This document shows, piece after piece, positions 3,157 to 56,872 of a stretch of 64,000 nt of DNA. The stretch's first letter is position 1. Each line of letters begins with the position of its first letter. The position numbers were made by a program, and so were the translations under genes. Below the pieces are notes generated by a model. It searched no databases, was not told the origin of the DNA, and saw only the letters and a list, made by a program, of their open reading frames with translations. The DNA lies in assembly GCA_030681595.1 (NCBI GenBank), contig JAUXSB010000003.1, positions 31,207 through 95,206 on the forward strand, written 5' to 3'. This stretch comes from Candidatus Omnitrophota bacterium (GTDB taxonomy: Bacteria; Omnitrophota; Gorgyraeia; Ghiorseimicrobiales; Ghiorseimicrobiaceae).

Positions 3157-3901
3157 ATTTATCTCCTGAGGAAGCGTTATATAAAGTAAAATGTTTTAAT
3201 ACATCTTCTAATTTTAATCCGTATTTTAATAATATATCTTTCTGGCCGTCGGAAGCCGGATTATCCACTAAGCCGCGGCAGCCATAGCAACGGTTGCCAT
3301 TATTTACACACCAGGAATTACAGCCTGCGCGCGTAACCGGGCCCATACACTCTTCATCTTTTTCATAGCGGCAGACATTTTCGTTCATCTTACATTCCAC
3401 GCAAACAGCGTAATTAGGCACTGTATAAGCTTTTCCTAAAAGCAGGCATTTTATCACCGAGACTATCTCAGGTATATACGGCGGACAGCCATTAATAACA
3501 TAATCAACTTTTACCACTTCTTGTATCGGCATAACCTTAATCGTATTCACTTTATCCGATTTTTCGCCGTAGACCCGCTTCTTAGCCAGCTCAAGCGAAT
3601 GGAGATTTTTGATCCCGTTTACCCCGCCGATTGAAGCACAAGCACCAAACGCTACCACAACCTTTGCCTTTTCCCTAATCTTTTTAATCCGTTTAACATC
3701 ATTATCCGTAGAGATGCTCCCCTCAACAAAGGCGATATCATAGTCATCACTCGCCTCCGACATCGCCTCGCGGAAATTTACAATATCCACCAATTTTACA
3801 AGCTCTAAAAGGCTGTTGCCCATATTAACAATCTGTAATTGACAGCCTTCGCAGTCAGTAAAATCAAAAAAAGCCAGCTTCGGCTTAGCTTGTTTTTTCA
3901 T
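3137..3901 (-). CDS. NiFe hydrogenase small (delta) subunit
   Basis: 254 aa with FTDCEGCQ proximal-cluster motif and further Cys clusters (GCPPYIP..., CxxC). Confidence 0.8.
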   Translation of the reverse strand: MKKQAKPKLAFFDFTDCEGCQLQIVNMGNSLLELVKLVDIVNFREAMSEASDDYDIAFVEGSISTDNDVKRIKKIREKAKVVVAFGACASIGGVNGIKNLHSLELAKKRVYGEKSDKVNTIKVMPIQEVVKVDYVINGCPPYIPEIVSVIKCLLLGKAYTVPNYAVCVECKMNENVCRYEKDEECMGPVTRAGCNSWCVNNGNRCYGCRGLVDNPASDGQKDILLKYGLKLEDVLKHFTLYNASSGDKYEQSFA

Positions 3902-4751
3902 GGCATTCTCCTTTAAAATCCCTTAGTTCATGATAGGTAAAAACCGGGCCTGACTGACAGACATATTTCCCTTCAATCTGGCAATGCCCGCATTTGCCCA
4001 ACCCGCAACGCATCCTGCGCTCAAGAGAAACTATAATTTGATGATCGGGGATAGTCTTCTTAAGCAGTTCCTTAATTACAAACTTATACATTATCGGCGG
4101 ACCCACTACCACGGCATAAGTCCTTGCCGGATTAATATCCACTCCCGGAATTAAAGTCGTAATTAAACCCACATTTCCCTTCCAGTCGGGATCTGCCATA
4201 TCTACCGTACAGTTAGATTTAATCTCAGCCCGCTTCATCCACTCGTTGGTCTCCTGCCAAAACAAGAAATCTTTCGGCGTCTTACATCCCAATAATATCT
4301 GCACATAGCCAAAATCATTCCTCTGGCTCATAACATACCTAATTAAAGAACGCAGCGGCACAATCCCCAAGCCTCCTGCGACGATAACCAAATCATACCC
4401 AAACATATTATCTATGGGAAACCCCCGGCCAAAAGGCCCCCTTATCCCGATGGTATCGCCCTTATCCAATTTATGCATTGCATTAGTCAAGGTGCCGACA
4501 TTTCTTACGGTTAAATCAAAAAATCCTTTATCCGTAGGAGATGAACAAATAGAAATCGGCGCCTCTGCGTAGCCAAAGATAGAAACCATTACAAACTGCC
4601 CCGGTTCATGGGCAAGGTTAATTTTTCCTTCAAGCTCTATCCGGAAAAACTTTTCCTTATCGGTAAGCATCTTTGTTTCGATAATCTTTCCCCGCATCGG
4701 CTTATAGGGGGATGTCTTCATTTTTTCTAAAAGTATTTCGCGGTCAATCAT
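3885..4751 (-). CDS. hydrogenase gamma subunit, FAD/NAD(P)-binding oxidoreductase with C-terminal 2Fe-2S (AsrB-like)
   Basis: 288 aa; C-terminal RMRCGLGKCGHCQ...C; flavodoxin-reductase-like fold. Confidence 0.7.
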   Translation of the reverse strand: MIDREILLEKMKTSPYKPMRGKIIETKMLTDKEKFFRIELEGKINLAHEPGQFVMVSIFGYAEAPISICSSPTDKGFFDLTVRNVGTLTNAMHKLDKGDTIGIRGPFGRGFPIDNMFGYDLVIVAGGLGIVPLRSLIRYVMSQRNDFGYVQILLGCKTPKDFLFWQETNEWMKRAEIKSNCTVDMADPDWKGNVGLITTLIPGVDINPARTYAVVVGPPIMYKFVIKELLKKTIPDHQIIVSLERRMRCGLGKCGHCQIEGKYVCQSGPVFTYHELRDFKGECHEKTS

Positions 4752-4799
4752 CTTTTAACTCCTTTAATGAACCCCGCAGATGGCGGGGCAAATTCGGGT

Positions 4800-5858
4800 T
4801 TATAACTTATGCCGCTTCGTTCTATAAGTTATACCCTCATTTAAAAGCGCATTTACAGTATCAACAAGATTAATCTGCGCCATACAGGTACGCGTGCACC
4901 TTCCGCAACCGGTACAGAAATAACGGTTATATTTATCCACGGAATATTTAAACTTACGGTAATATCTGTGCTTTTGCCTGCCGTCGCGCCCATGCCTAAA
5001 ATCTTCGCCTCCGGCAACTTTAGCGAAATCGTCCATCTGGCAATAATTCCAGATACGGTACCTAATGCCTTCATTTAAAGATAGTTCCATTTCATCTACC
5101 ACGTCGAAACAATAACAGGTTGGGCACACCGCGGTGCAATTTCCGCAGGCAACACACCTCTTTCCCACATTCTGCCAAACTTTAGAGTTAAAGCCTCTGT
5201 CAAAGGCGTCATATACTACGGGAAGAGCATCCCCTAATTCCTCCTTGAACACCTTCTTTTTTTCTTCTCTTATTTGCTCAAGCAAAGAAACCTCTGATTC
5301 TTTTGCCTCCCGGATATAGCCTAAACCTGTAACCAAACCTTCGCCTTTTTCTGAATTGATATGAATAATAAAACTTTTGCCTAAGTCTGTCAGCATCAGG
5401 TCATATCCGCCGCGGGGATTATGATTCCCCATCGAAGCACAGTTGGCAAATTTGTCGCAATAGTTGAGGCATTCAATACCAATTATAGTCATCTTATCCT
5501 TACGATTTAAATAATTGGGGTCTTCCGGGCTATCCCTAAATACCACATCCATACACTGTATTCCGGCAATATCGCAAGTATGTACCCCAAAAAGTATATA
5601 TTCCTCAAAAACATCTATTGCCTTTGCGGTCTTAAAAGGCCGAACACTAAACTTCAGCAGTTTCTCTTTCTGGGGAAAATAATATTTCTTGGGAGGAAGT
5701 ATCGTAGGAATATATTCCAAACATACTTCACTGATATCCCTTACCGGCCTAAAAACAAAAGAATTTTCCTTCTTTCTGGGCGCATAAAGCCGGGCCCTAC
5801 TCTTTAAATGTTCGAGCCATTTGCTCAAGCCCTCTTTCTGAATAATTGCGTATTTCAC
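4800..5858 (-). CDS. hydrogenase beta subunit, 4Fe-4S ferredoxin-like (AsrA-like)
   Basis: CVACGNCTAVCPTC and CTGCGRCTRTC motifs. I moved the start from the track TTG (5897) to the in-frame GTG at 5858, which is preceded by GAGGAG plus a 6-nt spacer. The 13 upstream codons are encoded by the conserved leader motif CTCATTGAGGAG. Confidence 0.7.
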   Translation of the reverse strand: MKYAIIQKEGLSKWLEHLKSRARLYAPRKKENSFVFRPVRDISEVCLEYIPTILPPKKYYFPQKEKLLKFSVRPFKTAKAIDVFEEYILFGVHTCDIAGIQCMDVVFRDSPEDPNYLNRKDKMTIIGIECLNYCDKFANCASMGNHNPRGGYDLMLTDLGKSFIIHINSEKGEGLVTGLGYIREAKESEVSLLEQIREEKKKVFKEELGDALPVVYDAFDRGFNSKVWQNVGKRCVACGNCTAVCPTCYCFDVVDEMELSLNEGIRYRIWNYCQMDDFAKVAGGEDFRHGRDGRQKHRYYRKFKYSVDKYNRYFCTGCGRCTRTCMAQINLVDTVNALLNEGITYRTKRHKL

Positions 5859-6020
5859 AAAATTCTCCTCAATGAGCACATAAGTTACAGAACACAATGA
5901 TGTAACTTATAAGTGCGAATTGATCCCGTTGAGTGCCTAAAAATTATAGTATAGAATTTTTAGGCATATTACGAAACGGGATAGATCCGATTAATGAGCC
6001 CCGAAGCTTCGGGGCGAATT
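5859..6020 (-). promoter_or_regulatory. conserved structured intergenic/leader cassette, copy 1 (extended, with two GGGATCAATTCG boxes)
   Basis: Shares with three other loci, read in minus sense: a GC stem-loop, GGGATCAATTC(C/G)G, hairpin B (cataagttac...gtaacttatg), then (A/G)TG(T/C)(G/C)CTCATTGAGGAGG and the start codon. Local perfect palindromes gcctaaaaatt-N9-aatttttaggc and gccccgaag-c-ttcggggc. Confidence 0.6.
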
Positions 6021-6046
6021 GATCCCAACGATATGTCGGGATGGCT

Positions 6047-7904: not shown

Positions 7905-8543
7905 CTAACCCTTCTTTTTTAACCTTTCCATATCCGAAGGTAATTCCGAATAGATATCTAAGCGTTTACCGGTTACGGGGTGATCAAAAGTAAGGCGGGA
8001 TGAATGAAGGGCAAGGCGCTTAAACTTTACCTCAAAATCCCTGCCGAAAGCAAATTTTCTTTCGCCTAATAGAGGATGGCCGATTTGCTTAAAATGAATG
8101 CGGATTTGGTTGGTCCTACCGGTGCGCGGGAAAACTTTAATCTCACTAAAACCATTAAAAAAATTCGCTACCTCAAAATCAGTAACGGCCAATTTTGGCT
8201 CTTCTCTCTCATCGTGCCTGATATAACTTTTTATGCGCCCCGAAGATTCTTTCAGTTTACCGCGCACAAAGGCGATATACTCCTTATATACTTTTTGCCG
8301 ATGGAAACTTTCCATCATTGCCTGCTGCGCTCTTTTAGTTTTAGCGTATATTATCAACCCGGAGGTCTGGCGGTCTAAGCGATGGCAGGGATAAAGCCGT
8401 AAATTTGGCTCTTTCTTTTCCGCCTCTTCATTAAGGATAGCAGTAAGGGTGCGGAATTCTTTTTTAGGAGTAGGGATTGTCAGAAGGCCGGAAGGCTTAT
8501 CCACGATAAGCAGATAGTCATCTTCATAGATAGTTTTGATCAT
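7905..8543 (-). CDS. RluA-family pseudouridine synthase
   Basis: 212 aa with HRLDRQTSGLIIYAKT catalytic Asp motif. Confidence 0.8.
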   Translation of the reverse strand: MIKTIYEDDYLLIVDKPSGLLTIPTPKKEFRTLTAILNEEAEKKEPNLRLYPCHRLDRQTSGLIIYAKTKRAQQAMMESFHRQKVYKEYIAFVRGKLKESSGRIKSYIRHDEREEPKLAVTDFEVANFFNGFSEIKVFPRTGRTNQIRIHFKQIGHPLLGERKFAFGRDFEVKFKRLALHSSRLTFDHPVTGKRLDIYSELPSDMERLKKKG

Positions 8544-8545
8544 GT

Positions 8546-8583
8546 GTCAAGCTGCAAGCTGCAAGCTCCAAGCTGCAAGCTTT
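8546..8583. repeat. heptamer microsatellite (caagctg/caagctc) x5
   Basis: caagctgcaagctgcaagctccaagctgcaagc read directly. Confidence 0.6.
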
Positions 8584-8595
8584 TAGCCTGAAGCC

Positions 8596-8650
8596 TGTGG
8601 CTTTGGCTATATTGAAAGCCAAACCACTGCCCTCTGGCTGGTGGCTTGTA
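8596..8650. repeat. single degenerate copy of the 44-bp repeat family (ggctttggctatattgaaagccaaacc core)
   Basis: tgtggctttggctatattgaaagccaaaccactgccctctggc is ~88% identical to the unit of the array at 35608-35795. Confidence 0.6.
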
Positions 8651-8679
8651 GCATGAAGCATATTTTCTCGCTACTTCTT

Positions 8680-10960: not shown

Positions 10961-11631
10961 TTATTTCTTTCTTAACTTTTCTACTGCCTCGGAAACCATT
11001 TTACCTACCAGATCCTTGCATCCTAAACCAAACGCCAAAGCAAATCCTATCCCTAAAGACGCCAAAACAATGGTTATTAAAATATTTATAACCGCGGCGC
11101 CTATACTAAGCTGCTCTAACGCAATCACTACCGCAAGGACAGCAATAGCCACTTCAACAACCTTGGCTAAAATCTTTGCTTGTTCAATTCCGGCGTTTAT
11201 TGCCGCGGTACGTACTGTTGCCGCTAAGAACGTTGAAAGGAATATACCTAGCGCCAAAACAATAATCGCGATAATAACATTGGGCACATACAGTACCATC
11301 CTGTTTAACAGGTCTGCGGCTACGGTCAAACCGACAGCATTAACCGCCACCATTATCACGATCAAGACAACCAGCCAATAACATATAGCCCCTATCAATT
11401 CCGCAAGAGTTAATTTTATACCGCCTTTACTCAAGAAAGAATTAGCCCCAATCTGATCTGCGATAGAATCAATCTTGATAAGCTTAAAAAGCCTGGTAAT
11501 TAAATTCTGTACAAGTTTGGCGATAAGCCAACCTATGACTAAAATTACAATTACCAAAAGCAAATTGCTCACTAAAGTACCAATACGGTTGAGCAGGTTA
11601 CTTACCGGCTCAAAAAGAATTGTTTTCCACA
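10961..11631 (-). CDS. membrane protein with conserved TM-helix repeats (mechanosensitive-channel-associated TM_helix type)
   Basis: Hydrophobic repeats. I moved the start from the track GTG (11656) to ATG 11631, preceded by AAGGAGG plus 4 nt. The track N-terminus SSLKGGS is the translated leader motif TCGTCATTGAAAGGAGG. Confidence 0.4.
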
Positions 11632-11828
11632 TACTGCCTCCTTTCAATGACGACACAACTTATGGAGTCACGGACGGCATAAGTTGTATGTCGGAATTGA
11701 TGCCGAAAGCTACGAGAAAATTTGTAGCAAATTTTCGAGTGTTTTGCTTTCGGCGCAATGCATAACTTACAAATTCCAAAACCTCCGGATGAACGAGTTA
11801 TTTACGCGTAGTAAAACCTACCTTTTCA
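11632..11828 (-). promoter_or_regulatory. conserved structured intergenic/leader cassette, copy 2
   Basis: Sense orientation: gccgaaagc[aaaacactcgaaaatttg-cta-caaattttctcg]gctttcggc, ATCAATTCCG, hairpin acaacttatg...cataagttgt, GTGTCGTCATTGAAAGGAGG, cagt, ATG. It fills the whole pyrG-stop to next-start gap. Confidence 0.6.
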
Positions 11829-15131: not shown

Positions 15132-15380
15132 TTAATGGTTTATATGCGGATGTTTTAGCTTATACCATTCGCAGAAAAAGCATTTCTCAATGCCGCGTTT
15201 ATCGCTGACTCTGCCGCAATATTGAGCCGCGACATGCCAACACTCTTTATCCGATTTATGGCTTTGGCGATATGGAAAGCCAAACCATTGCCTTGCCGGC
15301 TTATAGGCGGGGCAATTTTCTCTTGATTCTATTTTACATTCAAAATATTCCCAGCATGTTTTGGCATCTTTGTCAGGCAT
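15132..15380 (-). CDS. small Cys/Trp-rich protein (two-CW-like), paralog of 25662-25904, carrying an in-frame repeat-derived insertion
   Basis: 82 aa from ATG 15380, which overlaps the upstream hybrid-kinase stop as ATGCCTGA. KTCWEYFECKI...CPAYK aligns with KTACWEVRGCEI...CAAYK of the paralog. The extra 16 aa ARQWFGFPYRQSHKSD are encoded by a copy of the 44-bp repeat. Confidence 0.45.
   Translation of the reverse strand: MPDKDAKTCWEYFECKIESRENCPAYKPARQWFGFPYRQSHKSDKECWHVAAQYCGRVSDKRGIEKCFFCEWYKLKHPHINH
15254..15307. repeat. copy of the 44-bp repeat family embedded in-frame in a coding sequence
   Basis: ttatggctttggcgatatggaaagccaaaccattgccttgccggcttat is ~92% identical to the array unit. 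Confidence 0.6.
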
Positions 15381-20463: not shown

Positions 20464-21738
20464 TTACTCCAATTTAAATTTACTAATAGACGACTTAAAT
20501 GCCTCGGATAATTTATTCAACTGCATAGCGCTATTGGCTATCTGCTTGGCCGCCACAGCAAACTGCTTGGTAACCGTATCAATGTTTTTCATTGCCTCGG
20601 CGACTTGCGAGGAGGCGGTCTTCTGCTGCTGGGTAGCCAGCGAGATTTCCTTGGAAATCTTGGCACTGTCTTCTACCATCTTTAAACCTTCGGAAACTCC
20701 CTGCGTTGAGTCTTCTATGCCCATTACTACATTATTAGTCTCGGATTGTATTTCACCAATCAGCTGCCTAATCTCACCGGTAGACTCTATGGAACGCTCG
20801 GCTAATTTCCTTACCTCGGAAGCGACTACGGCAAAGCCGCGCCCTGCCTCTCCTGCGCGCGCCGCCTCAATAGCGGCATTTAAAGCCAAAAGGTTGGTCT
20901 GGCTTGAGAGGTCGTCAATCATGGAAGTAATCTTGCCGATGGCCTGCGATTTTTCGCCTAGGCATAAGATTTTCTTGGCGGCATCGGAAACTTTGGCGTT
21001 TATCTCTTTCATTTCAAGCAGGGTGCGCTCTGCGGCACGGGTGACGTTAAAGGCATTTTCGGCAATCGCTGTGGCTGTGCGGGAAAGCTCTTCCATCGTA
21101 GAAGTGGTTTCAGTAACAGCGGAAGCCTGCTCAGTTAAAGCTACGCTCTGCTCTTCGGCGGCAGAACGAATCTGCGTAGTTTCAGCGCTCACTTCCAAGC
21201 CAGCCTCACGAATTTGTTTAATCAACTCTTTCAGGCTTTTAATCATATGGTTGAAAGATTCTACCAGAGGCTTAAGCACAGGCAAGATATCTAAGGCCAT
21301 CTCCTGCGCCAGATTGTTTTCTTTCGAAGCATTTATTGTAAATACAGTTAACCTGCTTATGTCTTCCTCTAATTCCCTTCTTGCCCTAACCGCAGACCCC
21401 TCTTCCATCCTTTTATCTATAAGCATCTGATGCAAGATTTCAACGGTCTTATTAAAAGTCTCGGAGAATTTCCCAAACTCATCATTTGTTTTTACATCTA
21501 ATACTAAATCGTAATTACCCATAGCCAGGCCTTTAGAGGTAATCAATATTATGTCTATGGCGGCTACTATCCCGCGGATCTTCCGCCAGCTAAAAAAAAC
21601 ACATACCCCTACTAATACCAATTGTATCAACACCTTTAAAATTATGGGTATATTCAATAATCCCACCGCTAAAATTCCAAGCGAACCGGCAACAGTACAG
21701 CTGCCGCTTACCAAAATCAATTTATGCCTGACTAGCAT
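20464..21738 (-). CDS. methyl-accepting chemotaxis protein (MCP-1)
   Basis: 424 aa; TM plus HAMP; [34 protein letters not shown] signalling domain. Confidence 0.85.
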
Positions 21739-24219: not shown

Positions 24220-25374
24220 TTAAGTTTCCCTATCTGCTATTTCTTCCCTGAATTTGACTACATGTTTTTTAAGATTATCCGCGAGATCATTCAGCTTGGT
24301 GGAACTAGCAACTGACTGCTTGGCCGCCACGGCAAACTGCTTGGTAACCGTATCGATGTTTTTCATTGCCTCGGCGACTTGCGAGGAGGCGGTCTTCTGC
24401 TGCTGGGTAGCCAGCGAGATTTCTTTGGAAATCTTAGCACTGTCTTCTACCATCTTTAAACCTTCGGAAACACCGCGTGTTGAATCTTCTATGCCCATTA
24501 CTACGCTGTTAGTTTCCGCCTGTATTTCATTAATCAGCTGCCTAATCTCCTCGGTGGACTCGACTGAACGCTCGGCTAATTTCCTTACCTCGGAAGCGAC
24601 TACGGCAAAGCCGCGCCCTGCCTCTCCTGCGCGCGCCGCCTCAATAGCGGCATTTAAAGCCAGGAGGTTGGTCTGGCTTGAGAGGTCGTCAATCATGGAA
24701 GTAATCTTGCCGATGGTCTGCGATTTTTCGCCAAGTGCCAATATTTTCTTGGCGGCATCGGAAACTTTGACGCTTATCTCTTTCATTTCAAGCAGGGTGC
24801 GCTCTGCGGCACGGGTGACGTTATACGCGTTTTCAGCGATAGATGAAGCGGTACGGGAGAGCTCTTCCATTGTGCTGGTAGTTTCAGTGACGGCGGAAGA
24901 CTGTTCAGAGGCACCCGAGGCCTGTTCTTCGGTCGAGGCCATTATTTGGGCAGCGCAGGAAGTTACTTCCAGGCTTGCCTGCTGGATCTGATACATTAAA
25001 TTTCTTATACTTGCTATCCTCTTTACTGCCGCTCCTTCTTCCATCCGTTTATCAATAAGCATCTCATGAAGGATATCTATGGTGCGGTTAAAACTTTCGG
25101 CGAATTTACCAAATTCATCCTTGGTTTTTATATCCAACACTAAATCATAGTTGCCATAATTAAGCCCTTTGGATACATCCACAATCAACTCTAAAGGCGC
25201 AAGAAGCCTAAAAATGCCATATATGATAAGAATTACGCTAACCGCTATTAAGATAAACTTTGAACCGAGGTTTAAAGAAGGGGTTAATTGCAGGGTGTCT
25301 ATCCAGAATAAGCCGATAAAAAGCAAAATAATAGCTGCGCCGGTGATTAATAATAATTTATACTTTACACGCAT
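24220..25374 (-). CDS. methyl-accepting chemotaxis protein (MCP-2), paralog of MCP-1
   Basis: 384 aa. Its signalling domain is near-identical to MCP-1 (about 97% DNA identity over 150 compared bases, 24320-24480 vs 20534-20700). The N-terminal sensor/TM part differs. Confidence 0.85.
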
Positions 25375-25665: not shown

Positions 25666-25904
25666 TGACTAACCTTAATTTCATCCCCTTTACCGTGATC
25701 CTTATAGACCTTACAAATCTTACAAACGCTGACATCTATGCCGGATTCGCCTTTACAGATAGTACCTTTTATTATCCAGCAAGGATATTCCTGTTTTTTG
25801 TATGCCGCGCAACTTGGCGCCCCACCGGGCTTAATCTCACAACCTCTTACTTCCCAACAAGCTGTTTTTCCGGACCAGAATCCTGTTCCTTTTGGTAAAG
25901 CCAT
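25662..25904 (-). CDS. small Cys/Trp-rich protein (two-CW-like)
   Basis: 80 aa with motifs ACWEVRGCE and YPCWIIKGTIC and 8 Cys. The ATG is preceded by GGGGAGG plus 5 nt. Confidence 0.45.
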   Translation of the reverse strand: MALPKGTGFWSGKTACWEVRGCEIKPGGAPSCAAYKKQEYPCWIIKGTICKGESGIDVSVCKICKVYKDHGKGDEIKVSQ

Positions 25905-26040
25905 CTTTTCCTCCCCTCAATGACGGCATAACTTATGGAGCCAGAGACGACATAAGTTATCAGCCGGAATTGATCCCGATAGTTACAAGAAAATTTAGTA
26001 TAAATTTTCGCAGTGTTTTACTATCGGGACAATGATCCCC
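25905..26040 (-). promoter_or_regulatory. conserved structured intergenic/leader cassette, copy 3
   Basis: Sense orientation: tcccgatagt[aaaacactgcgaaaattta-tac-taaattttc]ttgtaactatcggga, TCAATTCCG, hairpin cataacttatg...cataagttatg, CCGTCATTGAGGGGAGG, aaaag, ATG. Confidence 0.6.
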
Positions 26041-26147
26041 GTCGGTTATCTTATCCTCTGCAATTCGAAGAATTACGAGGACTTAGTCCCTGAAATTGCT
26101 TCGCAATTTCTAGGGGCGAGACGGGACAAACCGACCTTTCTATTTTC

Positions 26148-26669
26148 TTACCTCTTTAAAGCAAAAATCTTTTCTACGTTTAAAATCGCGAAAAAAACAT
26201 CGCCGGATTTGCATTCTCCGACAATATATTCCGCCCGCTCCGGATCCAGCGTCTCCAGCGGCGGGTCGATATTATTTAATTCCACGTCTGCAACTTTAGA
26301 TATCTCATCTACGACTATGCCGGTTTCAAACTCGTTTGCGCGGATAACCAAGATCCGGCTTTCCCTGCCAATAGGCAGAGGTGTAAGACCGAATATCTTT
26401 TTTAAATCAGTAATAGATAAAATATTGCCTCTTAGGTTAACTATACCGGCAATATGTGCCGGCGCGCAAGGAAGATAGGTAAGTTCAAATATTTTTGCCA
26501 CATCTTTTACCTTAGAAATTTCAACCCCGTACCACTCCTTACCGAGCCTAAAATTAATAAAGCGGAGTTTCCGCGCTTCCGGCCGCCTCTCTTCATCATA
26601 AAAATCCTTATCAAGGCCAACCCCTGCTTCCAATGCAGCATCCTTATTTTGCGCTAATTGATTATCCAT
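26148..26669 (-). CDS. CheW-like coupling protein (second copy)
   Basis: 173 aa CheW domain. Confidence 0.7.
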   Translation of the reverse strand: MDNQLAQNKDAALEAGVGLDKDFYDEERRPEARKLRFINFRLGKEWYGVEISKVKDVAKIFELTYLPCAPAHIAGIVNLRGNILSITDLKKIFGLTPLPIGRESRILVIRANEFETGIVVDEISKVADVELNNIDPPLETLDPERAEYIVGECKSGDVFFAILNVEKIFALKR

Positions 26670-26726
26670 AATTATGTTACAATAACATAAATAACGCTTT
26701 AAGGCAATTATTTTTACAGAGATATT

Positions 26727-27617
26727 TTAGTTCTTATACCTTCCTGAGACATTCGGCTTCGGCTCCATATGTATAATAACATCCGAAACACCTGAGATTT
26801 TATCTTTTATTTCTGTTTCTATTCTGTAACTTAATTTATGGGCGATATCCATACGCATATCATTCATTACTAAAACATGTAGGTCAACATGTATGTCATC
26901 ACATCTGCCGCGCGTACGGATCTTATGGACGCTCAAAACTCCTTCTATGGACATGGCTATTTCCTCTATCTTTTTTGTATCTACCACCGCTGAATCGCAA
27001 AGCACTAACGCGCTGTCCCTTAAAATCTCTACAGCGGCATGGGCGATAAATACCGAAATAAAGATAGCGATAAGCGGGTCCAGGAAATACCACCCTGACT
27101 TTACCGCGAATAATGCCGCAATTACAGAAAACGAAGTAAGTATATCCGCCTTAGTATGCGCGGAATCTGCTATTAATATATCGCTCTTTAGGCGCCTGCC
27201 TGCATTATATTCATAGAACACAACCATAAAATTAATAATTAAAGTGGCAAACATCACCGCAAAACTTAAAAAGTTCGCATCGGGGACAACCGGTTTGCGA
27301 AAACGCTCTATGCTTTCATGGATTATCCCGATACAGACAAAGAACAATAAAAATGCAATCCCTATAGAGGCGAACGTTTCGTACTTTTTGTGGCCGTATG
27401 GATGAGATTCGTCTTTCGGGCGCGAGGCAAGCCAGATACCCAGAAAGCCGATGATGTTTGATGCTCCATCAGACAAAGAATGATAACCGTCGGCGACCAT
27501 AGAACTGCTTTTAATAATATAGCCCATGATAAGTTTGGCCAAAGCGACCACCCAGTTTAAGGCTAATACATAAATAAGCAGCCTCTTTATTTCTAACGCC
27601 CTATTTTTGGCACCCAT
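26727..27617 (-). CDS. cation diffusion facilitator (CDF) metal efflux transporter
   Basis: 296 aa with HSLSDGASN and HPYGHKKYE motifs; 6 TM plus a C-terminal cytoplasmic domain. Confidence 0.8.
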   Translation of the reverse strand: MGAKNRALEIKRLLIYVLALNWVVALAKLIMGYIIKSSSMVADGYHSLSDGASNIIGFLGIWLASRPKDESHPYGHKKYETFASIGIAFLLFFVCIGIIHESIERFRKPVVPDANFLSFAVMFATLIINFMVVFYEYNAGRRLKSDILIADSAHTKADILTSFSVIAALFAVKSGWYFLDPLIAIFISVFIAHAAVEILRDSALVLCDSAVVDTKKIEEIAMSIEGVLSVHKIRTRGRCDDIHVDLHVLVMNDMRMDIAHKLSYRIETEIKDKISGVSDVIIHMEPKPNVSGRYKN

Positions 27618-27963
27618 ATTTATCCAATATCCCGTCTAACTGTTTGAGCATAAAAGGTTTTCTTAGAAATTCATCCACGCCGGCGACTTTCGCGAAAACT
27701 TCGCCTATATCCTTATACCCGGAAATCATAACCAACTTTGCCTGAGGATTTTCTTTTTTTATCGTCTTGATCAAATCTACGCCTGATAAATACGGCATAT
27801 CGCAATCAATAAATACAATATCATAGGTATCGCTTTCCACGCAACGCTTGGCTTCCCGTCCGTCAAAGGCAAGGCTTATTTCGTAATCATTATTTTTCTT
27901 CTTGAGGTATCTCTTCAGCGATAAACAATACTCTCTATCGTCGTCAGCAATAAGAATTTTCAT
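27601..27963 (-). CDS. single-domain response regulator receiver
   Basis: 120 aa with ILIADDDRE...IDCDMP. Confidence 0.8.
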   Translation of the reverse strand: MKILIADDDREYCLSLKRYLKKKNNDYEISLAFDGREAKRCVESDTYDIVFIDCDMPYLSGVDLIKTIKKENPQAKLVMISGYKDIGEVFAKVAGVDEFLRKPFMLKQLDGILDKYGCQK

Positions 27964-27971
27964 TTTTTATT

Positions 27972-28098
27972 TTTTACCCCGTTAGAGATACCCTATCTAC
28001 TGCTTAAGACCAACTACTTATTTATAGAAGCTCTATTCTGTTTTTGCCTATCCCGTAATAGACGGCCATCTATGATGGCCTATCTCTAACGGGGTTTA
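27972..28098. repeat. MITE-like element B with 15-bp terminal inverted repeats (accccgttagagata / tatctctaacggggt)
   Basis: Read directly; ~127 bp. It overlaps the last codons of the aldolase gene and contains the internal palindrome ggccatc-tat-gatggcc. Confidence 0.5.
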
Positions 28099-28877
28099 TG
28101 CTTTATCTCTTCATACAGCTCAAATGCCTGTTTTACCTTCGCCTTCTTATGTACGATTTCCCTCACTGCCATAATCATTCCAACAGGACAGTCAGATTGA
28201 AAAATATTCCTGCCCATATCCACCCCTATCGCTCCGTCGGACACTGCATTAAACGCCAGCTCCAGGGCAGCTTTTTCCTCAATTTTTTTTCCTCCGGCAA
28301 TAACCACCGGAACCGGGCATTCCTTAACTACCTGCGTAAAATTCTCGCAATAATAAGTTTTTACAAAATGCGCACCCAATTCCGCGGCAATCCTGCAACA
28401 CAGGCTCAAATAACGCGCGTCGCGGTTCATTTCTTTGCCTACGGCAGTAACTGCTAATACCGGAATGCCGTACTTTTGGCCTTCATCTACAAGATGAGCA
28501 AGGCTCAACAGCGTCTCTTTCTCGTATTCGCTACCCACAAATATCGAAAGAGCAACCGCGGAAACATTTAACCGTAAAGCATCCTCCATTGAAACAGTGA
28601 GCCCTTCGTTAGCTAAGGATTTTCCGATAACGCTTGTGCCTCCGGAAACGCGCAAAACAACCGGGACGTCATCTTGGGCATTAACGGACGCACGCAAGAT
28701 ACCCCGAGTAAGCATAAGAGAATCCGCGTACGGCAGAAGCGGCTTAATAGTTTCTTTCGGCTCTTCTAAACCTGAAGTAGGCCCTAAAAAATAACCATGG
28801 TCTATAGCCAGCATTACAGTACGTCCTGTCTCCGGTTTTATTATACGAGATAACCTGTTTTTTAATCCCCAATCCAT
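28086..28877 (-). CDS. DhnA-type class I aldolase family protein
   Basis: I moved the start from track ATG 28901 to ATG 28877, preceded by GGAGG plus 6 nt; the track N-terminus SSLRRKS is the translated leader motif. AIDHGYFLGP and GAHFVKTYY motifs. Confidence 0.55.
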   Translation of the reverse strand: MDWGLKNRLSRIIKPETGRTVMLAIDHGYFLGPTSGLEEPKETIKPLLPYADSLMLTRGILRASVNAQDDVPVVLRVSGGTSVIGKSLANEGLTVSMEDALRLNVSAVALSIFVGSEYEKETLLSLAHLVDEGQKYGIPVLAVTAVGKEMNRDARYLSLCCRIAAELGAHFVKTYYCENFTQVVKECPVPVVIAGGKKIEEKAALELAFNAVSDGAIGVDMGRNIFQSDCPVGMIMAVREIVHKKAKVKQAFELYEEIKHKPR

Positions 28878-29013
28878 GGATTTCCTCCTCAATGACGACA
28901 TAATTTACGGAAACGAAGTTGACGTAAATTATATGTCGGAATTGATCCCGCCGAATGTACCAAAATTATAGAATATAATTTTGGTACATTTTATGAGGCG
29001 GGATAAACATTAA
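28878..29013 (-). promoter_or_regulatory. conserved structured intergenic/leader cassette, copy 4
   Basis: Sense orientation: cccgcc...[gtaccaaaattata-ttc-tataattttggtac]...ggcggg, ATCAATTCCG, hairpin gacatataatttacg...cgtaaattatgtc, GTCATTGAGGAGG, aaatcc, ATG. Confidence 0.6.
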
Positions 29014-30063
29014 TCATTTCTGCGGATAAATAATTACTTTCACCGATTCTTTTGCCTCACTGACTAATTTAAAACCCAAAGCCGTATCTTTAAGCGGAAG
29101 CCGGTGCGTAATCATTTTCTCTAAACTAAGGCGCCCGGATTTTATCCAATCTAGCGCCTCGATGTGGTCGCAAGGGCTGCCTGCGTATGAAGAAATAATT
29201 TTACGCTCTGTACGCCAAAAGAGCTTATTTACCGGTAAATTTACGGCCGCGTCTTTATCGGTAGGCGCAAAAAATATTATTGTCCCTGCCAAATCCACTG
29301 ATTCAAACGCCTGATTTATAGCACTTGTTGCTCCCGTGCATAAGATAACTACATCAGCAAACCTTCCTTTATTGAGCTGGTAAAACCCTTGAGGCGTAAA
29401 TTCTTTTGCGTTTACGGCAAAGTCTGCGCCTAACTCTTTAGCTTTACTAAGCCGATGCTCATTGATATCTACCGCTACAATTAAACCAGCACCGCTTGCC
29501 CGCGCAAGATGGATATGTAAAAGCCCGGCTATTCCGCTTCCAATAACTAAAATTGATTGGTTCTTAGATAGATCGGCAATTCTTTGAGCTCGCAAGACAC
29601 AGGCAAGCGGCTCAATAAATGTAGCCAAATCAAAAGAAATATTTTCCGGCAGGCGATATACGCCGTCACGCACATTTATCGCCGGCAGGCGCACATATTC
29701 TGAAAATCCCCCGGGATAAAAATTAGTTTTACGCAGCGTCTCGCAGACCGTCTGGTAGCCATTTTTACAATAATAACACTCGTTGCAAGGGACATGGTGC
29801 GAAGCAGAAACCCTATCGCCCGTATCATATCCTTTAACGCCTTCTCCAACCTCAGCAACAGTCGCGGCTATTTCATGGCCCAATACTAAAGGAACCTTAT
29901 CTTTCCTGTACCACTCCATCACATCAGAACCGCATATCCCTGATGCCTCAACGCGTAACAAAAGCTCGCCCCTGCCTATTTTAGGCTTATCCGTTTCTTC
30001 GATACGCACATCAGAATTGCTGTAATATTTTGCTATACGCATATTCGTCATTCTTCCGAGCAT
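29014..30063 (-). CDS. zinc-dependent medium-chain dehydrogenase (threonine/sorbitol dehydrogenase-like)
   Basis: 349 aa with GHEIAATVAEVGEGV and CNECYYCKNG structural-Zn motif. Confidence 0.75.
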   Translation of the reverse strand: MLGRMTNMRIAKYYSNSDVRIEETDKPKIGRGELLLRVEASGICGSDVMEWYRKDKVPLVLGHEIAATVAEVGEGVKGYDTGDRVSASHHVPCNECYYCKNGYQTVCETLRKTNFYPGGFSEYVRLPAINVRDGVYRLPENISFDLATFIEPLACVLRAQRIADLSKNQSILVIGSGIAGLLHIHLARASGAGLIVAVDINEHRLSKAKELGADFAVNAKEFTPQGFYQLNKGRFADVVILCTGATSAINQAFESVDLAGTIIFFAPTDKDAAVNLPVNKLFWRTERKIISSYAGSPCDHIEALDWIKSGRLSLEKMITHRLPLKDTALGFKLVSEAKESVKVIIYPQK

Positions 30064-35607: not shown

Positions 35608-35795
35608 CTTATGGCTTTGGCTAAATTGAAAGCCAAACCATTGCCTTGTGGCTTATGGCTTTGGCTATATTGAAAGCCAAACCATTGCCTTGTGGCTTAT
35701 GCCTTTGGCTATATTGAAAGCCAAACCATTGCCTTGTGGCTTATGCCTTTGGCTATATTGAAAGCCAAACCATTGCCTTACCGGCTTATGCCTTA
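35608..35795. repeat. tandem array, ~4.4 copies of a 44-bp unit (cttatggctttggctatattgaaagccaaaccattgccttgtgg)
   Basis: Read directly with period 44 bp. Copies differ at 1-3 positions. The unit contains the hairpin tttggc-N10-gccaaa. It lies at the left boundary of the low-GC radical SAM island. Confidence 0.85.
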
Positions 35796-55977: not shown

Positions 55978-56872
55978 ATTTTTTTAGGACAGGGACAAAT
56001 TCTGACCAGCCAAATTTTTCAGGATACTCTTTCCACGGCCCTTCACAAATTTTATAATGATAGCAATGCCTGCAAGACAAATTCTTCGCTTTTCCTTCTT
56101 TTTTACGTACTTTCGTAAAATCATCGATAACCTTTCCAAGGTCATAAATTATTGTTTCGGGTATAATCTTTTCAGCGATATAATCTTCATAGCCTTGCAT
56201 GAAACAATAAGGTATTGCTTCTGTCATGACTTTTTTATTAGCCTTGATACCTATACCCAAACCTTCCTTAACATAGGGCATAACCATTGAAATTCTCGGC
56301 ACAACAGAATAAAAATTATCGCCTGCCGAACCGGCAGCATGGACAAATGCAAATTGAAATTGGTCAACGCCAAGTTTTACCAAAAGCTCAGCGATTTGCG
56401 CTAGATGCCTATAATTAGGTTTAGTAATAACCGTGTTAGTGATTACAGTTTGATTTCGTTGTTTTAAATTTATTATTCCCGCGACAGTCTCGTTAAAGCT
56501 GCCGGCAGAAGAAGTCAAATAATCATGGACTTGGGCGATATGCCCATGGAGTGCCGGAGAAAATTCATTCGCCCCTGCGGCAATAATTTCATCGCAAAAC
56601 TTTTTATAATAGAATATCCTGCCGTTAGTTTGTATTTGGATAATTTTAAATTTCAATCTTTTGGCATGGCCAACCAAATCTAAAATATCGCTTCGTATTG
56701 TAGGCTCGCCTCCGGTAAAAACAACCCCATCGCAGTCTCGCCTGGCATCCTCTAAAATCTTCTTTATAGCAAGAGTATCTTTATCGCTTTGCAGGTGTCT
56801 CTTCTTGCCCTGGACGCAAAACCGGCAATGGTTATTGCAAGCAAATCCGATTTTAATATCAACTCTTTTCAT
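55967..56872 (-). CDS. radical SAM protein, island paralog family (close paralog of 39763-40650)
   Basis: 301 aa with CNNHCRFCVQGKKR, FTGGEPT, ALHGHIAQVHDYLT, and C-terminal IPYCFMQ...CRHCYHYKICEGPWKEYPEKFGWSEFVPV. Confidence 0.75.
   Translation of the reverse strand: MKRVDIKIGFACNNHCRFCVQGKKRHLQSDKDTLAIKKILEDARRDCDGVVFTGGEPTIRSDILDLVGHAKRLKFKIIQIQTNGRIFYYKKFCDEIIAAGANEFSPALHGHIAQVHDYLTSSAGSFNETVAGIINLKQRNQTVITNTVITKPNYRHLAQIAELLVKLGVDQFQFAFVHAAGSAGDNFYSVVPRISMVMPYVKEGLGIGIKANKKVMTEAIPYCFMQGYEDYIAEKIIPETIIYDLGKVIDDFTKVRKKEGKAKNLSCRHCYHYKICEGPWKEYPEKFGWSEFVPVLKKYGR

Follow-up and report, generated by a model that had tools for sequence, protein, structure and literature searches.

A repeated two-hairpin cassette stands directly before many unrelated genes in Omnitrophota and some of their phages

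We found that four stretches within a 64,000-nt segment of Candidatus Omnitrophota bacterium DNA (JAUXSB010000003.1, positions 31,207-95,206, forward strand; this whole segment is called the window, and positions are counted from its first letter) are genuine copies of one cassette of about 120 bases with two hairpins. The cassette is specific to Omnitrophota, is used by some Omnitrophota phages, and stands directly before many unrelated genes for which heavy use is probably expected. How it works we infer from sequence comparison and predicted folding: it could be a generic structured leader, or intercistronic "punctuation", that insulates and stabilises RNA and probably marks it for processing, a reading that we prefer but hold tentatively. 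No Rfam family matches the cassette. With Rfam 15 at the gathering threshold the whole window yielded only a tRNA; a search of 25800-29100 with E up to 10 gave sub-threshold microRNA-type matches to the AT palindrome and a weak Cyano-2 match; and 15 related loci returned only tRNA and tmRNA. Likewise, we found no published description of it in the literature on Omnitrophica/Omnitrophota RNA motifs or repeats.

An intact copy consists, in order, of hairpin A, box 1 (GGGATCAATTC), hairpin B, box 2 (CTCATTGA), a strong Shine-Dalgarno site and a start codon. Hairpin A has an AT-rich centre inside GC clamps and an ATCCC/GGGAT base, in which GGGAT, part of box 1, forms the 3' side and pairs with ATCCC. 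The TCAAT of box 1 pairs with the ATTGA of box 2 and so closes hairpin B, whose geometry is 5 bp, a 2x2 TC/TC bubble, 4 bp, a bulge and 10 bp; alternatively, the same TCAAT can pair with an ATTG upstream of hairpin A. The ends of the cassette read TT(A/G)TCCC and TCATTGA, and the flanks are unrelated. Stems vary freely, several B types coexist within one genome, and in some copies hairpin A is short and GC-only and hairpin B is GC-rich.

The window carries four intact copies, a truncated unit and a short derivative on its minus strand, and one inverted degenerate copy on its plus strand:

4749-4788, minus strand: short derivative before the gene at 3885-4751 (sequence).
4782-4849, plus strand: inverted degenerate B module, the fifth copy (covariance-model match, 47 bits).
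5856-5858, minus strand: copy 1, GTG start of the first gene of a hydrogenase-type cluster.
5865-5868, minus strand: copy 1, Shine-Dalgarno GGAG.
5869-5876, minus strand: copy 1, box 2 CTCATTGA.
5869-5923, minus strand: copy 1, hairpin B (sequence, fold, covariance model).
5917-5927, minus strand: copy 1, box 1 GGGATCAATTC.
5923-5982, minus strand: copy 1, hairpin A of type II, ATCCCGTT...AACGGGAT (fold, type II alignment and covariation).
Within 5923-5982, minus strand: copy 1, inner AT-rich palindrome of hairpin A, TGCCTAAAAATT / AATTTTTAGGCA.
5985-6029, minus strand: truncated unit upstream of copy 1, without a Shine-Dalgarno site (covariance-model match, 26.5 bits).
11630-11756, minus strand: copy 2, whole (sequence, fold, covariance model).
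11630-11632, minus strand: copy 2, ATG of a membrane-protein gene upstream of the pyrophosphatase gene.
11637-11651, minus strand: copy 2, box 2 and AAGGAGG.
11644-11700, minus strand: copy 2, hairpin B.
11694-11704, minus strand: copy 2, box 1 variant GGCATCAATTC.
11700-11756, minus strand: copy 2, hairpin A of type I.
25902-26030, minus strand: copy 3, whole (sequence, fold, covariance model).
25902-25904, minus strand: copy 3, ATG of the gene for an 80-aa protein.
25910-25924, minus strand: copy 3, box 2 and GGGGAGG.
25917-25973, minus strand: copy 3, hairpin B.
25967-25977, minus strand: copy 3, box 1.
25973-26030, minus strand: copy 3, hairpin A of type I.
26035-26127, minus strand: enlarged second A-type hairpin upstream of copy 3, GTCCCGTCTCG ... 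GACGGGGAT.
28875-29004, minus strand: copy 4, whole (sequence, fold, covariance model).
28875-28877, minus strand: copy 4, ATG of a DeoC/DhnA-type aldolase gene.
28884-28896, minus strand: copy 4, box 2 and GGAGG.
28889-28945, minus strand: copy 4, hairpin B.
28939-28949, minus strand: copy 4, box 1.
28945-29004, minus strand: copy 4, hairpin A of type II.

Read from its base upward, hairpin B of copy 1 comprises TCAAT/ATTGA, the TC/TC bubble, a 4-bp GCAC/GTGC helix, a 2-nt bulge and the 10-bp ATAAGTTACA/TGTAACTTAT. The truncated unit upstream of it consists of GGGATCAATTCG, a GC hairpin CCCCGAAGCTTCGGGG and then CTCATTAA; a decayed B unit also lies, apparently and by eye only, upstream of hairpin A of copy 2. 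The enlarged A-type hairpin near copy 3 has an inserted three-hairpin block, also found in relatives (L061, L065, L083 and L103), and is followed by CATTG. Upstream of copy 4, the stop codon of the preceding gene is at 29014-29016. The inverted copy has GGGGCAAATTC as box 1 and CCTCATTTA as box 2; it overlaps the 3' end of the ORF at 4800-5858 and, with the ORF as called, provides its last ~16 codons and stop. The short derivative begins with a GC hairpin, CCCCGCCATCTGCGGGG (4772-4788), and continues with TTCATTAAAGGAG; TCATTAA lies at 4764-4770, AGGAG at 4759-4763 and the ATG of the cluster's second gene at 4749-4751.

The four copies lie where a preliminary description of this DNA had placed them, on the minus strand and with the layout it gave, and the hairpin-B arms it quoted for each copy are correct and complementary. 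Its interval for the first copy, 5859-6020, does contain one full unit (5865-5982) but also takes in most of the truncated unit (5985-6029). A chance origin of the copies is excluded by several lines of evidence: exact repeats (five exact occurrences of GGATCAATTC in the window, all on the minus strand), an excess over shuffles (4 occurrences of TCATTGARRRGRRG, compared to 0.53 expected), the scores of the four copies with a box 1-hairpin B-box 2 covariance model (71-86 bits, E 1e-20 to 1e-24), the complementary hairpin-B arms, and the folding predictions, in which every copy forms hairpin A and hairpin B with z-scores of -3 to -9.

The cassette is not confined to the window. We identified more than 118 loci in a sequence-pattern scan, and the covariance-model search for further copies, suggested in the preliminary description, found about 190 in 58 species-level assemblies, nearly all labelled Omnitrophota. 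A few contigs that carry it bear the labels Planctomycetia, Methanosarcinales, Smithellaceae or Saccharibacteria. It is found on genuine phage contigs as well: one copy lies inside a cluster of Mu-like tail genes, where a small ORF and then the tail sheath gene follow it (L003), and another contig also has a terminase (L005). Among 80 metagenome loci encoding aldolase homologues (252 kb), there was at most one match, at the closest relative of the window's aldolase (L125, 86% identity); these loci are a weak negative control only, since the others probably come from other phyla. Comparison of synteny between the window and the fetched loci recovered no orthologous cassette site. Orthologous genes with 55-92% protein identity retain the cassette in different genomes.

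Both hairpins and the box 1/box 2 helix are under selection for pairing, as the preliminary description had argued from compensatory changes. Changes on both sides were seen in 17 of the 19 modelled pairs of hairpin B and in 13 of 21 pairs of type II hairpin A, and 96.9% of hairpin B cells pair, compared to 22-42% in slid controls. Of 136 distinct sequences, 111 have TCAAT/ATTGA as the closing helix, in the context GATCAAT/ATTGAGG; the closing pair is CG (111), AU (10) or UA (6). The TC/TC bubble is invariant: one side has T in 138/138 and C in 136/138, and the other has T in 138 and C in 138.

A start codon and ORF follow 106 of the 118 high-scoring copies, and about 90% of good copies have the sense orientation and the same spacing to the start codon, mostly 10-12 nt from box 2 (10-12 nt in the intact copies of the window). 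The commonest Shine-Dalgarno sequence, GGAGGT, matches the 16S 3' end GGAUCACCUCCUUUCU. Hairpin A often begins a few nucleotides after the upstream stop codon, so that the cassette spans the gap from stop to start and supplies the ribosome-binding site, as first proposed. An ORF heuristic, which took as neighbour the closest upstream ORF with 90 or more codons, gave a co-directional neighbour in 82 of 96 cases; the apparent divergent ORFs were mostly shadow ORFs, and only two (L052, murJ; L123, rpoN) looked real. In two loci the cassette adjoins a structural RNA directly, the mature 5' end of tmRNA, after smpB (L071), and the mature 5' end of tRNA-Glu (L096).

The downstream genes are very diverse and mostly housekeeping. 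Proteins downstream of 121 copies fall into 144 Pfam families, including ATP synthase c, ClpP, RpoA, IF3, IlvC and P-II. Given these 144 families and the abutment on tmRNA and tRNA, we conclude that the cassette is not a regulon marker, a riboswitch or a purely translational signal; the regulon of hydrogenase, pyrophosphatase, chemoreceptor and aldolase genes that had been envisaged does not survive this diversity, to which phage tail genes also belong. We considered, more generally, that the cassette might be a signal-sensing cis-regulatory RNA (riboswitch-like) or the target of one global regulator protein or small RNA (as in a CsrA-like leader). Conserved boxes in a structured 5' leader, with GGA in both box 1 and the Shine-Dalgarno site, would fit such a role, as would the alternative structures offered by the two partners of TCAAT, and the similarity of copies within a genome could mean co-evolution with one trans-acting factor. 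However, the Shine-Dalgarno site is sequestered in neither alternative fold, stems vary freely with several B types per genome and form no conserved pocket-like multi-helix junction, Rfam gave no match even at E up to 10, and the targets range over tRNA, tmRNA, phage tail genes and 144 protein families. We therefore consider regulation of this kind very improbable.

Ordinary promoters lie outside the cassette. In about 10 loci, TTGACA-like/TATAAT-like promoters end ~7-110 nt upstream of hairpin A, within ~20 nt of it in three (L086, L009 and L033) and also at L078, L046, L103, L027 and L069. Thus, with ordinary sigma-70 promoters upstream of hairpin A, the cassette is transcribed, and both hairpins are present in the RNA at those loci. 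We nevertheless looked for a promoter or operator in the cassette itself, in which hairpin A would be a bidirectional AT-rich promoter or a global factor site and hairpin B the initial transcribed region. Such a role might explain why the 3' end of the loop and the stem of type II hairpin A read nAnAAT (GATAAT, TATAAT, GACAAT), why hairpin A often directly follows the upstream stop codon with no room for another promoter, and why the divergent murJ and rightward gene at L052, each with its own B unit, share one hairpin A. Against it, a consensus scan of 105 copies revealed no positional peak of sigma-70-like sites inside the cassette, with a similar result for the antisense control, and no -35 partner was found, by scan and hand inspection, for the -10-like GATAAT of hairpin A or TAAGTT of hairpin B. 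Upstream of the -10-like hexamer of hairpin A, the sole conserved block is 20 bp away rather than at the 16-18 bp of a hexamer pair, and the "GA" of GATAAT belongs to the covarying stem. Moreover, short GC-only A hairpins stand before tmRNA and other genes, GC-rich variants have neither box, and variable sequence with compensatory change is unlike the evolution of a protein operator. The built-in promoter of the preliminary description is not supported as a general feature: the GC-rich variants have no -10-like box, ordinary promoters are found upstream in ~10 loci, and the Omnitrophota rRNA operon has an ordinary TTGACA/TATATT promoter and no cassette. We regard a promoter or operator role as quite improbable.

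A Rho-independent terminator was also rejected. The defining T run does not directly follow either hairpin, the sequence being ATCAATTC after hairpin A and TCATTGA after hairpin B, and a terminator scan gave no prediction at copies 1, 3 or 4.

The details of pairing bear on whether the hairpins are read in RNA or in DNA. The stems show no preference for G-U wobble, with G-U no commoner than A-C: the non-standard cells of hairpin B comprise 25 G-U, 30 A-C and 42 others out of 1881. Were an RNA helix under selection on one strand, one would not usually expect this absence of a wobble preference. In addition, the antisense (template) strand is the better predicted folder in 138 of 149 B modules (by a mean of 3.8 kcal/mol) and in 61 of 80 A hairpins; read in antisense, the TC/TC bubbles become tandem G-A and the TTC/TTAC loops become GAA/GTAA. 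These two results, for which we have no explanation, keep a DNA-level alternative alive, in which A and B are extruded cruciforms or folded single-stranded DNA. They might then be read by a structure-specific DNA-binding protein, by a hairpin-promoter RNA polymerase as in phage N4 or by a recombinase, or might buffer supercoiling upstream of heavily transcribed genes. Covariation that is Watson-Crick only, and a template strand that folds better than the sense strand, with tandem G-A and GAA/GNRA-type loops, speak for such a signal. Furthermore, the AT-rich centre between GC clamps in hairpin A favours extrusion, the invariant mismatch bubbles and fixed bulge resemble protein-read features of folded DNA sites, and heavy transcription is expected of the genes that the cassette precedes, among them tRNA and tmRNA genes, for which translation plays no part. 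On the other hand, a topological or DNA-binding role would not call for strict orientation and exact fusion to a Shine-Dalgarno site or mature 5' end, extrusion as a cruciform is made less favourable by mismatches and bulges, and the ordinary upstream promoters mean that the sequence is transcribed anyway. The GC-rich B and short GC-only A variants also keep their position despite very different extrusion properties. Finally, quasi-palindromes are known to undergo template-switch "self-correction", from which the Watson-Crick-only pattern could itself stem. On balance we judge a DNA-level signal unlikely, though deserving serious consideration.

We also considered that Omnitrophota and their phages might use, rather than an ordinary RNA leader, a hairpin-dependent signal read in folded DNA or on both strands and, related to it, a dedicated phylum-specific RNA nuclease that cuts after box 2, a pair of proposals that we likewise rate as unlikely. 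The folded-DNA version draws on the Watson-Crick-only covariation, the invariant TC/TC (equivalently GA/GA) bubbles and the better-folding template strand; the signal may mark heavily used gene starts, and its reader may be a dedicated polymerase-associated factor, nuclease or recombinase. In the nuclease version, the cut after box 2 may make the 5' ends of mRNAs and, in two loci, those of tRNA and tmRNA.

In our preferred reading, that of a modular structured leader which is transcribed and acts as intercistronic punctuation, RNA would be stabilised and probably processed. The cassette is placed exactly at the boundary where the upstream gene ends and the downstream RNA functionally begins, with a strong Shine-Dalgarno site (10-12 nt ahead of the start codon) or a mature tRNA or tmRNA 5' end as this beginning, and the two hairpins would uncouple the downstream RNA from anything upstream. 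The task of hairpin A would be to cap the upstream message at its 3' end, and hairpin B would protect the 5' end of the downstream message from end-dependent decay. The conserved junction (box 1, bubble and box 2) would serve as the recognition site, and probably the cleavage site, of a host endoribonuclease, candidates being an enzyme of RNase III type acting in the bubble or of RNase E/Y type acting in the linker; the modelled geometry of hairpin B is compatible with an RNase III processing site. Self-folding of the leader would leave the Shine-Dalgarno site just as accessible as without a leader. In agreement, the mean predicted probability that the Shine-Dalgarno site is unpaired is 0.49 with the native leader, 0.49 with none and 0.33 with a shuffled leader, a modest predicted gain in accessibility. 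The net result might be high, context-independent expression where most genes have no Shine-Dalgarno site: in the window, any Shine-Dalgarno-like tetramer occurs at 13 of 58 starts, and the cassette family accounts for 5 of the 11 strong ones.

At the tRNA and tmRNA loci, the foot of the closing helix coincides with the RNase P site. If this helix persisted in the RNA, RNase P should be hindered rather than helped, which counts against punctuation.

The many copies per genome raise the further possibility of a REP/BIME-like or MITE-like repeat, spread and homogenised by a transposase or gene conversion, that is mainly selfish or neutral and happens to carry a ribosome-binding site. The arrangements include mosaic, tandem (B-A-B) and inverted (Brc-A-B) ones with decayed members, and at least 7 of the ~190 copies, perhaps 12 or more, stand before no gene and are inverted, decayed or both, which also counts against punctuation. 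In two genomes an antisense copy adjoins a truncated tRNA 5' half, and in the window the inverted copy makes the 3' end of an ORF. Copies are also more alike within than between genomes (0.70 compared to 0.55 at variable stem positions), and nearly identical orthologous proteins (92%) are preceded by different B types. Yet a stem identity of only ~70% within a genome argues against recent bursts, and there are no terminal inverted repeats or target-site duplications. Moreover, about 90% of good copies share orientation and spacing to the start codon, the boxes are conserved over 58 species-level assemblies, the cassette is kept before orthologous genes, and it is present within phage structural gene clusters. 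Thus, we find a mainly selfish repeat improbable. A MITE in particular was rejected on the ends, which are not inverted repeats, the unrelated flanks, the ~0.70 identity and the ~90% sense orientation.

Comparison with known systems shows partial likenesses. Like the enterobacterial REP/BIME elements associated with RAYT, the cassette is an interspersed extragenic palindrome in many copies, in mosaics with tandem and inverted members and in a lineage-specific family; these elements are also transcribed within operons, and REPs act as barriers to mRNA decay. Whereas the cassette precedes genes and has the sense orientation, REPs are found behind genes, facing either way, with no fixed link to a ribosome-binding site, and each is a ~35-nt single hairpin with a conserved GTAG-type tetranucleotide rather than two elaborate hairpins with fixed bubbles. 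The neisserial Correia and pneumococcal BOX elements resemble it in length (~100-150 nt), in their many copies near gene starts and in their long hairpins; both are co-transcribed and change expression, BOX is modular (boxA/B/C), and Correia RNA is cut by RNase III. However, Correia elements have 26-bp terminal inverted repeats, TA target duplications, both orientations and near-identical copies, unlike the cassette, and neither family gives a Shine-Dalgarno site at a fixed distance or covariation like that of the cassette. Compared to the IS200/IS605-derived PATE, bulged hairpins, a sharp right end and TTGAT-like sequences (the reverse complement of box 1) are present, but cassette copies are old, diverse and tied to gene starts.

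Integron attC sites (Vibrio VCRs) share a length of ~60-140 nt, conserved structure with variable sequence, bulges and a bubble, and the filling of gaps between unrelated co-directional genes; they are read as folded single-stranded DNA and have strict Watson-Crick arms. We rejected this identity because the core sites are absent (R'' RYYYAAC and R' GTTRRRY in attC, compared to GATCAAT / ATTGAGG), because attC has one hairpin and the cassette two, and because core housekeeping genes in conserved synteny lie alongside (smpB-ssrA, and also atpE and rpoA).

The phage T7 RNase III sites (such as R1.1) are likewise intercistronic bubble hairpins, beside the downstream ribosome-binding site of a polycistronic transcript, at which the upstream product keeps a protective 3' hairpin. 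Cleavage there is experimental and phage-specific, whereas for the cassette, of unrelated sequence, it is only inferred; unlike the T7 sites, the cassette forms a cellular, phylum-wide family and also precedes tRNA and tmRNA genes. The leaders of ompA (E. coli) and aprE/ermC (B. subtilis), the cryIIIA STAB-SD and RiboJ similarly have a stable hairpin right upstream of an exposed strong Shine-Dalgarno, and give long mRNA life and context-independent expression; these, however, are single-gene or engineered elements, and none is known as a repeated family with conserved boxes shared by many genes across a phylum.

Other identities were set aside. A hammerhead ribozyme was rejected by eye on both strands: the antisense CUCAAUGA-stem-GAAU has no G5, U4 or C3 and there is no three-way junction, nor was there an Rfam match. 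A leader peptide was rejected as well: although ATG...TAA mini-frames of 2-7 codons turn up in some A hairpins of type II, neither their length nor their presence is conserved. The likeness of CTCATTGA followed by GGAGG to the T7/T3 promoters (CTCACTATA followed by GGGAGA) was put down to coincidence, given the variability of the 40 bp upstream. Box 1 has GGAUCA in common with the 16S 3' end, and this sequence complements UUGAUCC at the 5' end; pairing of box 1 with the 16S rRNA ends was left as a probable coincidence.

Omnitrophota is a widespread uncultured phylum of very small bacteria that are possibly predatory or host-dependent, and to our knowledge almost nothing is known of gene expression in it. 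That one easily recognised cassette precedes many core genes, a tRNA, the tmRNA and structural genes of phages indicates that gene expression here has a lineage-specific layer, whether RNA punctuation and stabilisation or a DNA hairpin signal. Compensatory change without wobble, together with invariant mismatch bubbles, makes the cassette a clean test case for hairpin selection at the RNA as opposed to the DNA level. As a marker, it lends itself to predicting probably highly expressed genes in MAGs, flagging mis-binned contigs and tying phage contigs to Omnitrophota hosts. If it is an insulator, the cassette would be a natural counterpart of synthetic-biology parts such as RiboJ.

The four intergenic intervals named in the preliminary description share a common order of parts, all on the minus strand: hairpin A, box 1, hairpin B, box 2, a strong Shine-Dalgarno site and the start codon. 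These intact copies precede a hydrogenase-type cluster (copy 1), genes for a membrane protein and a pyrophosphatase (copy 2), a gene for an 80-aa protein (copy 3) and a DeoC/DhnA-type aldolase gene (copy 4). Hairpin A has an ATCCC/GGGAT base, followed by a variable complementary outer stem and an AT-rich inner palindrome. Box 1 is (C)GGGATCAATTC and box 2 is (C/G)TCATTGA; GGATCAATTC has five exact matches in the window, on the minus strand every time, and TCATTGARRRGRRG occurs 4 times compared to 0.53 expected. RNA structure prediction, which the preliminary description had proposed, folded every copy into two hairpins (z-scores -3 to -9) and went beyond its account in two respects: GGGAT of box 1 is part of hairpin A, and the TCAAT of box 1 and the ATTGA of box 2 pair with each other, such that hairpin B is closed by the two conserved boxes. 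From the base upward, hairpin B begins with a 5-bp helix (TCAAT/ATTGA) and continues with a TC/TC bubble (2x2), 4 bp, a 5'-side bulge of 2 nt, ~10 bp, in most cases a second TC/TC bubble, and a short tip of 3 bp.

A covariance model (R1) of the B module (box 1, hairpin B and box 2), likewise proposed earlier, was run on the entire window with filters off. The four copies scored 71-86 bits, and the model found two further units, listed here with an enlarged hairpin:

5985-6029, truncated unit (found by R1)
4782-4849, plus strand, inverted, degenerate copy (found by R1)
26035-26127, minus strand, enlarged A-type hairpin that precedes copy 3

ORF 4800-5858 (minus strand), the first gene of the hydrogenase-type cluster, ends within the inverted copy, which supplies its final ~16 residues (...NEGITYRTKRHKL) and its stop codon, in what looks like a repeat-derived C-terminal tail. 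Directly after the inverted copy lies a short derivative (a GC hairpin, TTCATTAA and AGGAG), with the next gene downstream. The enlarged hairpin A carries an inserted block (~75 nt) that contains three small hairpins (GAAATTGC-GAA-GCAATTTC; GGGACTAAGTCC; GTAATTC-TTC-GAATTGC), and hairpins with this block are also found in related assemblies ahead of different genes (L061, L065, L083 and L103); Rfam gave only a weak sub-threshold Cyano-2 match near it, just upstream at 26112-26266. By eye, we noted an apparent decayed B unit (ATAACT...AGTTATGCATTG) at 11757-11828 (minus strand), upstream of the copy 2 hairpin A, which is absent from the covariance-model matches in the window.

The window also contains a second repeat family, unrelated to the cassette: a 44-nt unit (CTTATGCCTTTGGCTATATTGAAAGCCAAACCATTGCCTTGTGG) with its own hairpin (GGCTTTGGC...GCCAAAGCC type), present as 4.2 tandem repeats at 35608-35794 in a 668-nt gap and as solitary intergenic copies at 8582-8669 and 15256-15304. 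Other tandem repeats are (CAAGCTG) x4.9 at 8548-8581, in the gap that precedes gene 7905-8543, and six repeats of a 9-nt unit (GCCATGGGA) at 57838-57893, at the overlap of ORFs 56859-57959 and 57829-58125. Paralogous ORFs 20464-21738 and 24220-25374, 3.7 kb apart, hold stretches of 74-88% identity (20515-20814 vs 24289-24588; 21389-21537 vs 25025-25173).

The wider search called for in the preliminary description, an exact-box scan of one genome per species, yielded >118 loci, a lower bound. Among the matches listed, nearly all were MAGs labelled Candidatus Omnitrophota, and several single assemblies contributed many loci. The covariance model, applied to 8-kb tiles around these seeds, recovered at least ~190 copies in at least 58 assemblies; given such tiles and seeds chosen by exact boxes, copies per genome and class distribution are at best lower bounds. 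The ~60 copies that were not selected by the pattern give an unbiased view of conservation, and in these the boxes and the TC/TC bubble are almost invariant. In 252 kb of metagenome loci encoding aldolase homologues, the single model match (L125) precedes the homologue nearest to the aldolase of the window (86% identity). We found no matching family in Rfam 15 for the window and related loci and no description of the cassette in the literature; as far as could be found, it is undescribed so far.

The earlier proposal of a selected secondary structure with compensatory changes is borne out. In 138 B modules, in an alignment fitted to the covariance model itself, 17 of 19 hairpin B pairs changed on both sides, 96.9% of cells were paired (compared to 22-42% with partners slid 1-3 columns), and 0 of 500 shuffles reached the observed values. 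An independent MAFFT alignment of 67 sequences left the picture unchanged (14 of 19 pairs, 96% paired). Covariation extends to the box 1/box 2 helix (CG 111, AU 10, UA 6 at one pair), with variants including AAATTC...TCATTTA and TAATTC...TCATTAA. Hairpin A occurs in about three sequence types, with compensatory changes in 13 of the 21 predicted pairs of type II, and at the related locus L096 two adjacent near-identical copies differ by one compensatory double change.

We examined what the cassettes adjoin, calling genes on both sides by simple ORF rules. A start codon and ORF lie within a few nt of 106 of 118 high-scoring copies, and the remaining copies mostly stand at the end of a locus or upstream in a tandem array. 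Box 2 is 10-12 nt from the start codon in most copies, and GGAGGT, the most frequent Shine-Dalgarno sequence after it, complements the 3' end of 16S rRNA, GGAUCACCUCCUUUCU, as read in L069. Since only 13 of 58 starts in the window have any Shine-Dalgarno-like tetramer, the genome seems to initiate translation mostly without such pairing; 5 of the 11 strong sites in the window belong to the cassette family. On the upstream side, the closest ORF that spans 90 codons or more is co-directional in 82 of 96 cases by these rules, under which several seemingly divergent neighbors are shadow ORFs, and all 58 large ORFs of the window are on the minus strand. Box 1 often lies 55-75 nt from the upstream stop, and thus hairpin A starts within a few nt of the stop.

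The regulon suggested earlier (hydrogenase, pyrophosphatase, chemoreceptor and aldolase) did not hold: 121 downstream proteins are mutually unrelated, match 144 Pfam families, and include ATP synthase subunit c, ClpP, RpoA, IF3, ketol-acid reductoisomerase, P-II and type II/IV secretion ATPases. With such targets before us, we regard a leader that senses a signal or binds a regulator as highly improbable. Moreover, at L071 the cassette occupies the entire gap from the smpB stop (TAG overlapping ATCCC) to the first tmRNA base, and at L096 the first base of tRNA-Glu adjoins box 2, with a second cassette after the tRNA, ahead of a protein gene. Thus, the cassette is not solely a translation signal.

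Omnitrophota use ordinary promoters: the L069 rRNA operon is preceded by TTGACA, ~17 nt and TATATT, with no cassette near this promoter, and the cassette of L069 has TTGAAC-17-TAGAAT ~45 nt upstream of hairpin A. In a consensus scan of 105 copies, strong promoters end ~7-110 nt upstream of hairpin A in ~10 loci (within ~20 nt in L086, L009 and L033; also upstream in L078, L046, L103 and L027), which places A and B within the 5' untranslated region there. A promoter/operator module is very unlikely in our judgment. Where loop and stem meet in hairpin A type II, the hexamer nAnAAT does look like a -10 element, but it has no -35 partner 16-18 bp away, and its first bases covary with the stem. Furthermore, the scan gave no peak of promoter-like sites inside the cassette, and nothing resembles nAnAAT in the short GC-only A hairpins (before tmRNA and in L016) or the GC-rich B hairpins (L015, L034, L109 and L120). 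We therefore discard the built-in promoter as a defining part of the cassette, while some AT-rich A hairpins could conceivably also act as promoters. A case in point may be L052, at which murJ and a divergent gene have one B unit each and a single hairpin A in common.

From the sequences, we tentatively favor a transcribed structured leader, or intercistronic punctuation cassette. Hairpin A would cap the upstream RNA and hairpin B the downstream RNA, the conserved junction would be the recognition site, and probably also the cut site, of a host endoribonuclease, and the self-contained fold would keep the Shine-Dalgarno site as open as it is without a leader (predicted unpaired probability 0.49 with the native leader, 0.49 with none and 0.33 with a shuffled one). 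Punctuation fits how exactly the cassette fills gaps between co-directional genes, its fixed orientation, its strong Shine-Dalgarno site where most genes of the genome have none, the housekeeping targets and the upstream promoters. It also fits a phage case: L003 is a real phage fragment (Mu Gp37, tail sheath protein, DNA circularisation protein), with its cassette immediately ahead of a small ORF and the sheath gene. Less easily accommodated are the tRNA and tmRNA cases, in which a helix ends right at the RNase P site.

Two signatures are left unexplained by punctuation. In an RNA helix under selection on one strand, G-U normally builds up to levels far beyond those of A-C. The stems of hairpin B have no wobble preference (1784 Watson-Crick cells, 25 G-U, 30 A-C and 42 other at 14 variable pairs), and hairpin A has only a mild excess (59 G-U vs 35 A-C). 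Folding predictions with RNA parameters favor the antisense strand in 138 of 149 B modules (mean 3.8 kcal/mol) and in 61 of 80 A hairpins, because on it the invariant TC/TC bubbles turn into tandem G-A mismatches and the tips, rich in pyrimidines (TTC, TAC, TTAC; 66% pyrimidine), become GAA, GTA and GTAA loops. Either the structure is read in DNA or in both strands, or a DNA-level process quickly erases single mismatches, with the bubbles and bulge retained by selection; template switching, known to perfect quasi-palindromes, is a candidate. A hairpin signal acting in DNA is unlikely, though worth weighing.

The cassette is kept at orthologous genes (55-92% protein identity) in different assemblies, with differences in hairpin B sequence and even B type. 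Identity at variable stem positions is 70% within and 55% between assemblies, which argues for old, individually maintained copies with some homogenisation and against a recent transposition burst. We consider a REP/MITE-like repeat without host function distinctly unlikely: arrangements are modular (B alone, A-B, B-A-B, inverted Brc-A-B), and in distal or inverted units the boxes are decayed and the Shine-Dalgarno site is missing, but the copies lack the terminal inverted repeats and target duplications of a MITE. In two assemblies, at L043 (~1675-1770) and L085 (~1054-1147), an antisense cassette adjoins a truncated tRNA-like 5' half (GTAGCTCA(A/G)TTGGATAGAGCA(C/T)CTG) just downstream of intact tRNA-Pro, which suggests rearrangement or insertion there.

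Functionally, the cassette comes closest to REP/BIME decay barriers, T7 RNase III sites, 5' stabiliser hairpins and RiboJ, a synthetic insulator; its organisation recalls BIME and BOX mosaics. Integron attC sites similarly conserve structure over sequence, with a bubble and bulge. The cassette lacks what defines attC sites, MITEs, terminators, sigma-70 promoters, hammerheads and each of the Rfam families, and we file it among structured intergenic repeats and leader hairpins.

The cassette is specific to Omnitrophota. Good copies occur on four IMG/VR contigs, and L005 (IMG/VR) encodes a large terminase. A few contigs with other labels also carry good copies (L115, Smithellaceae; L119, Methanosarcinales; L073, Saccharibacteria; L017, Eisenbacteria; L039 and L110, delta proteobacterium; all MAGs), as do many 'Planctomycetia' MAGs. 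L115 and L006 (IMG/VR) share an identical cassette with identical flanks (~90 nt upstream, 25 nt downstream). These labels probably reflect mislabelling or mis-binning, and the cassette may be a practical marker for mis-binned or mislabelled contigs of Omnitrophota or their phages.
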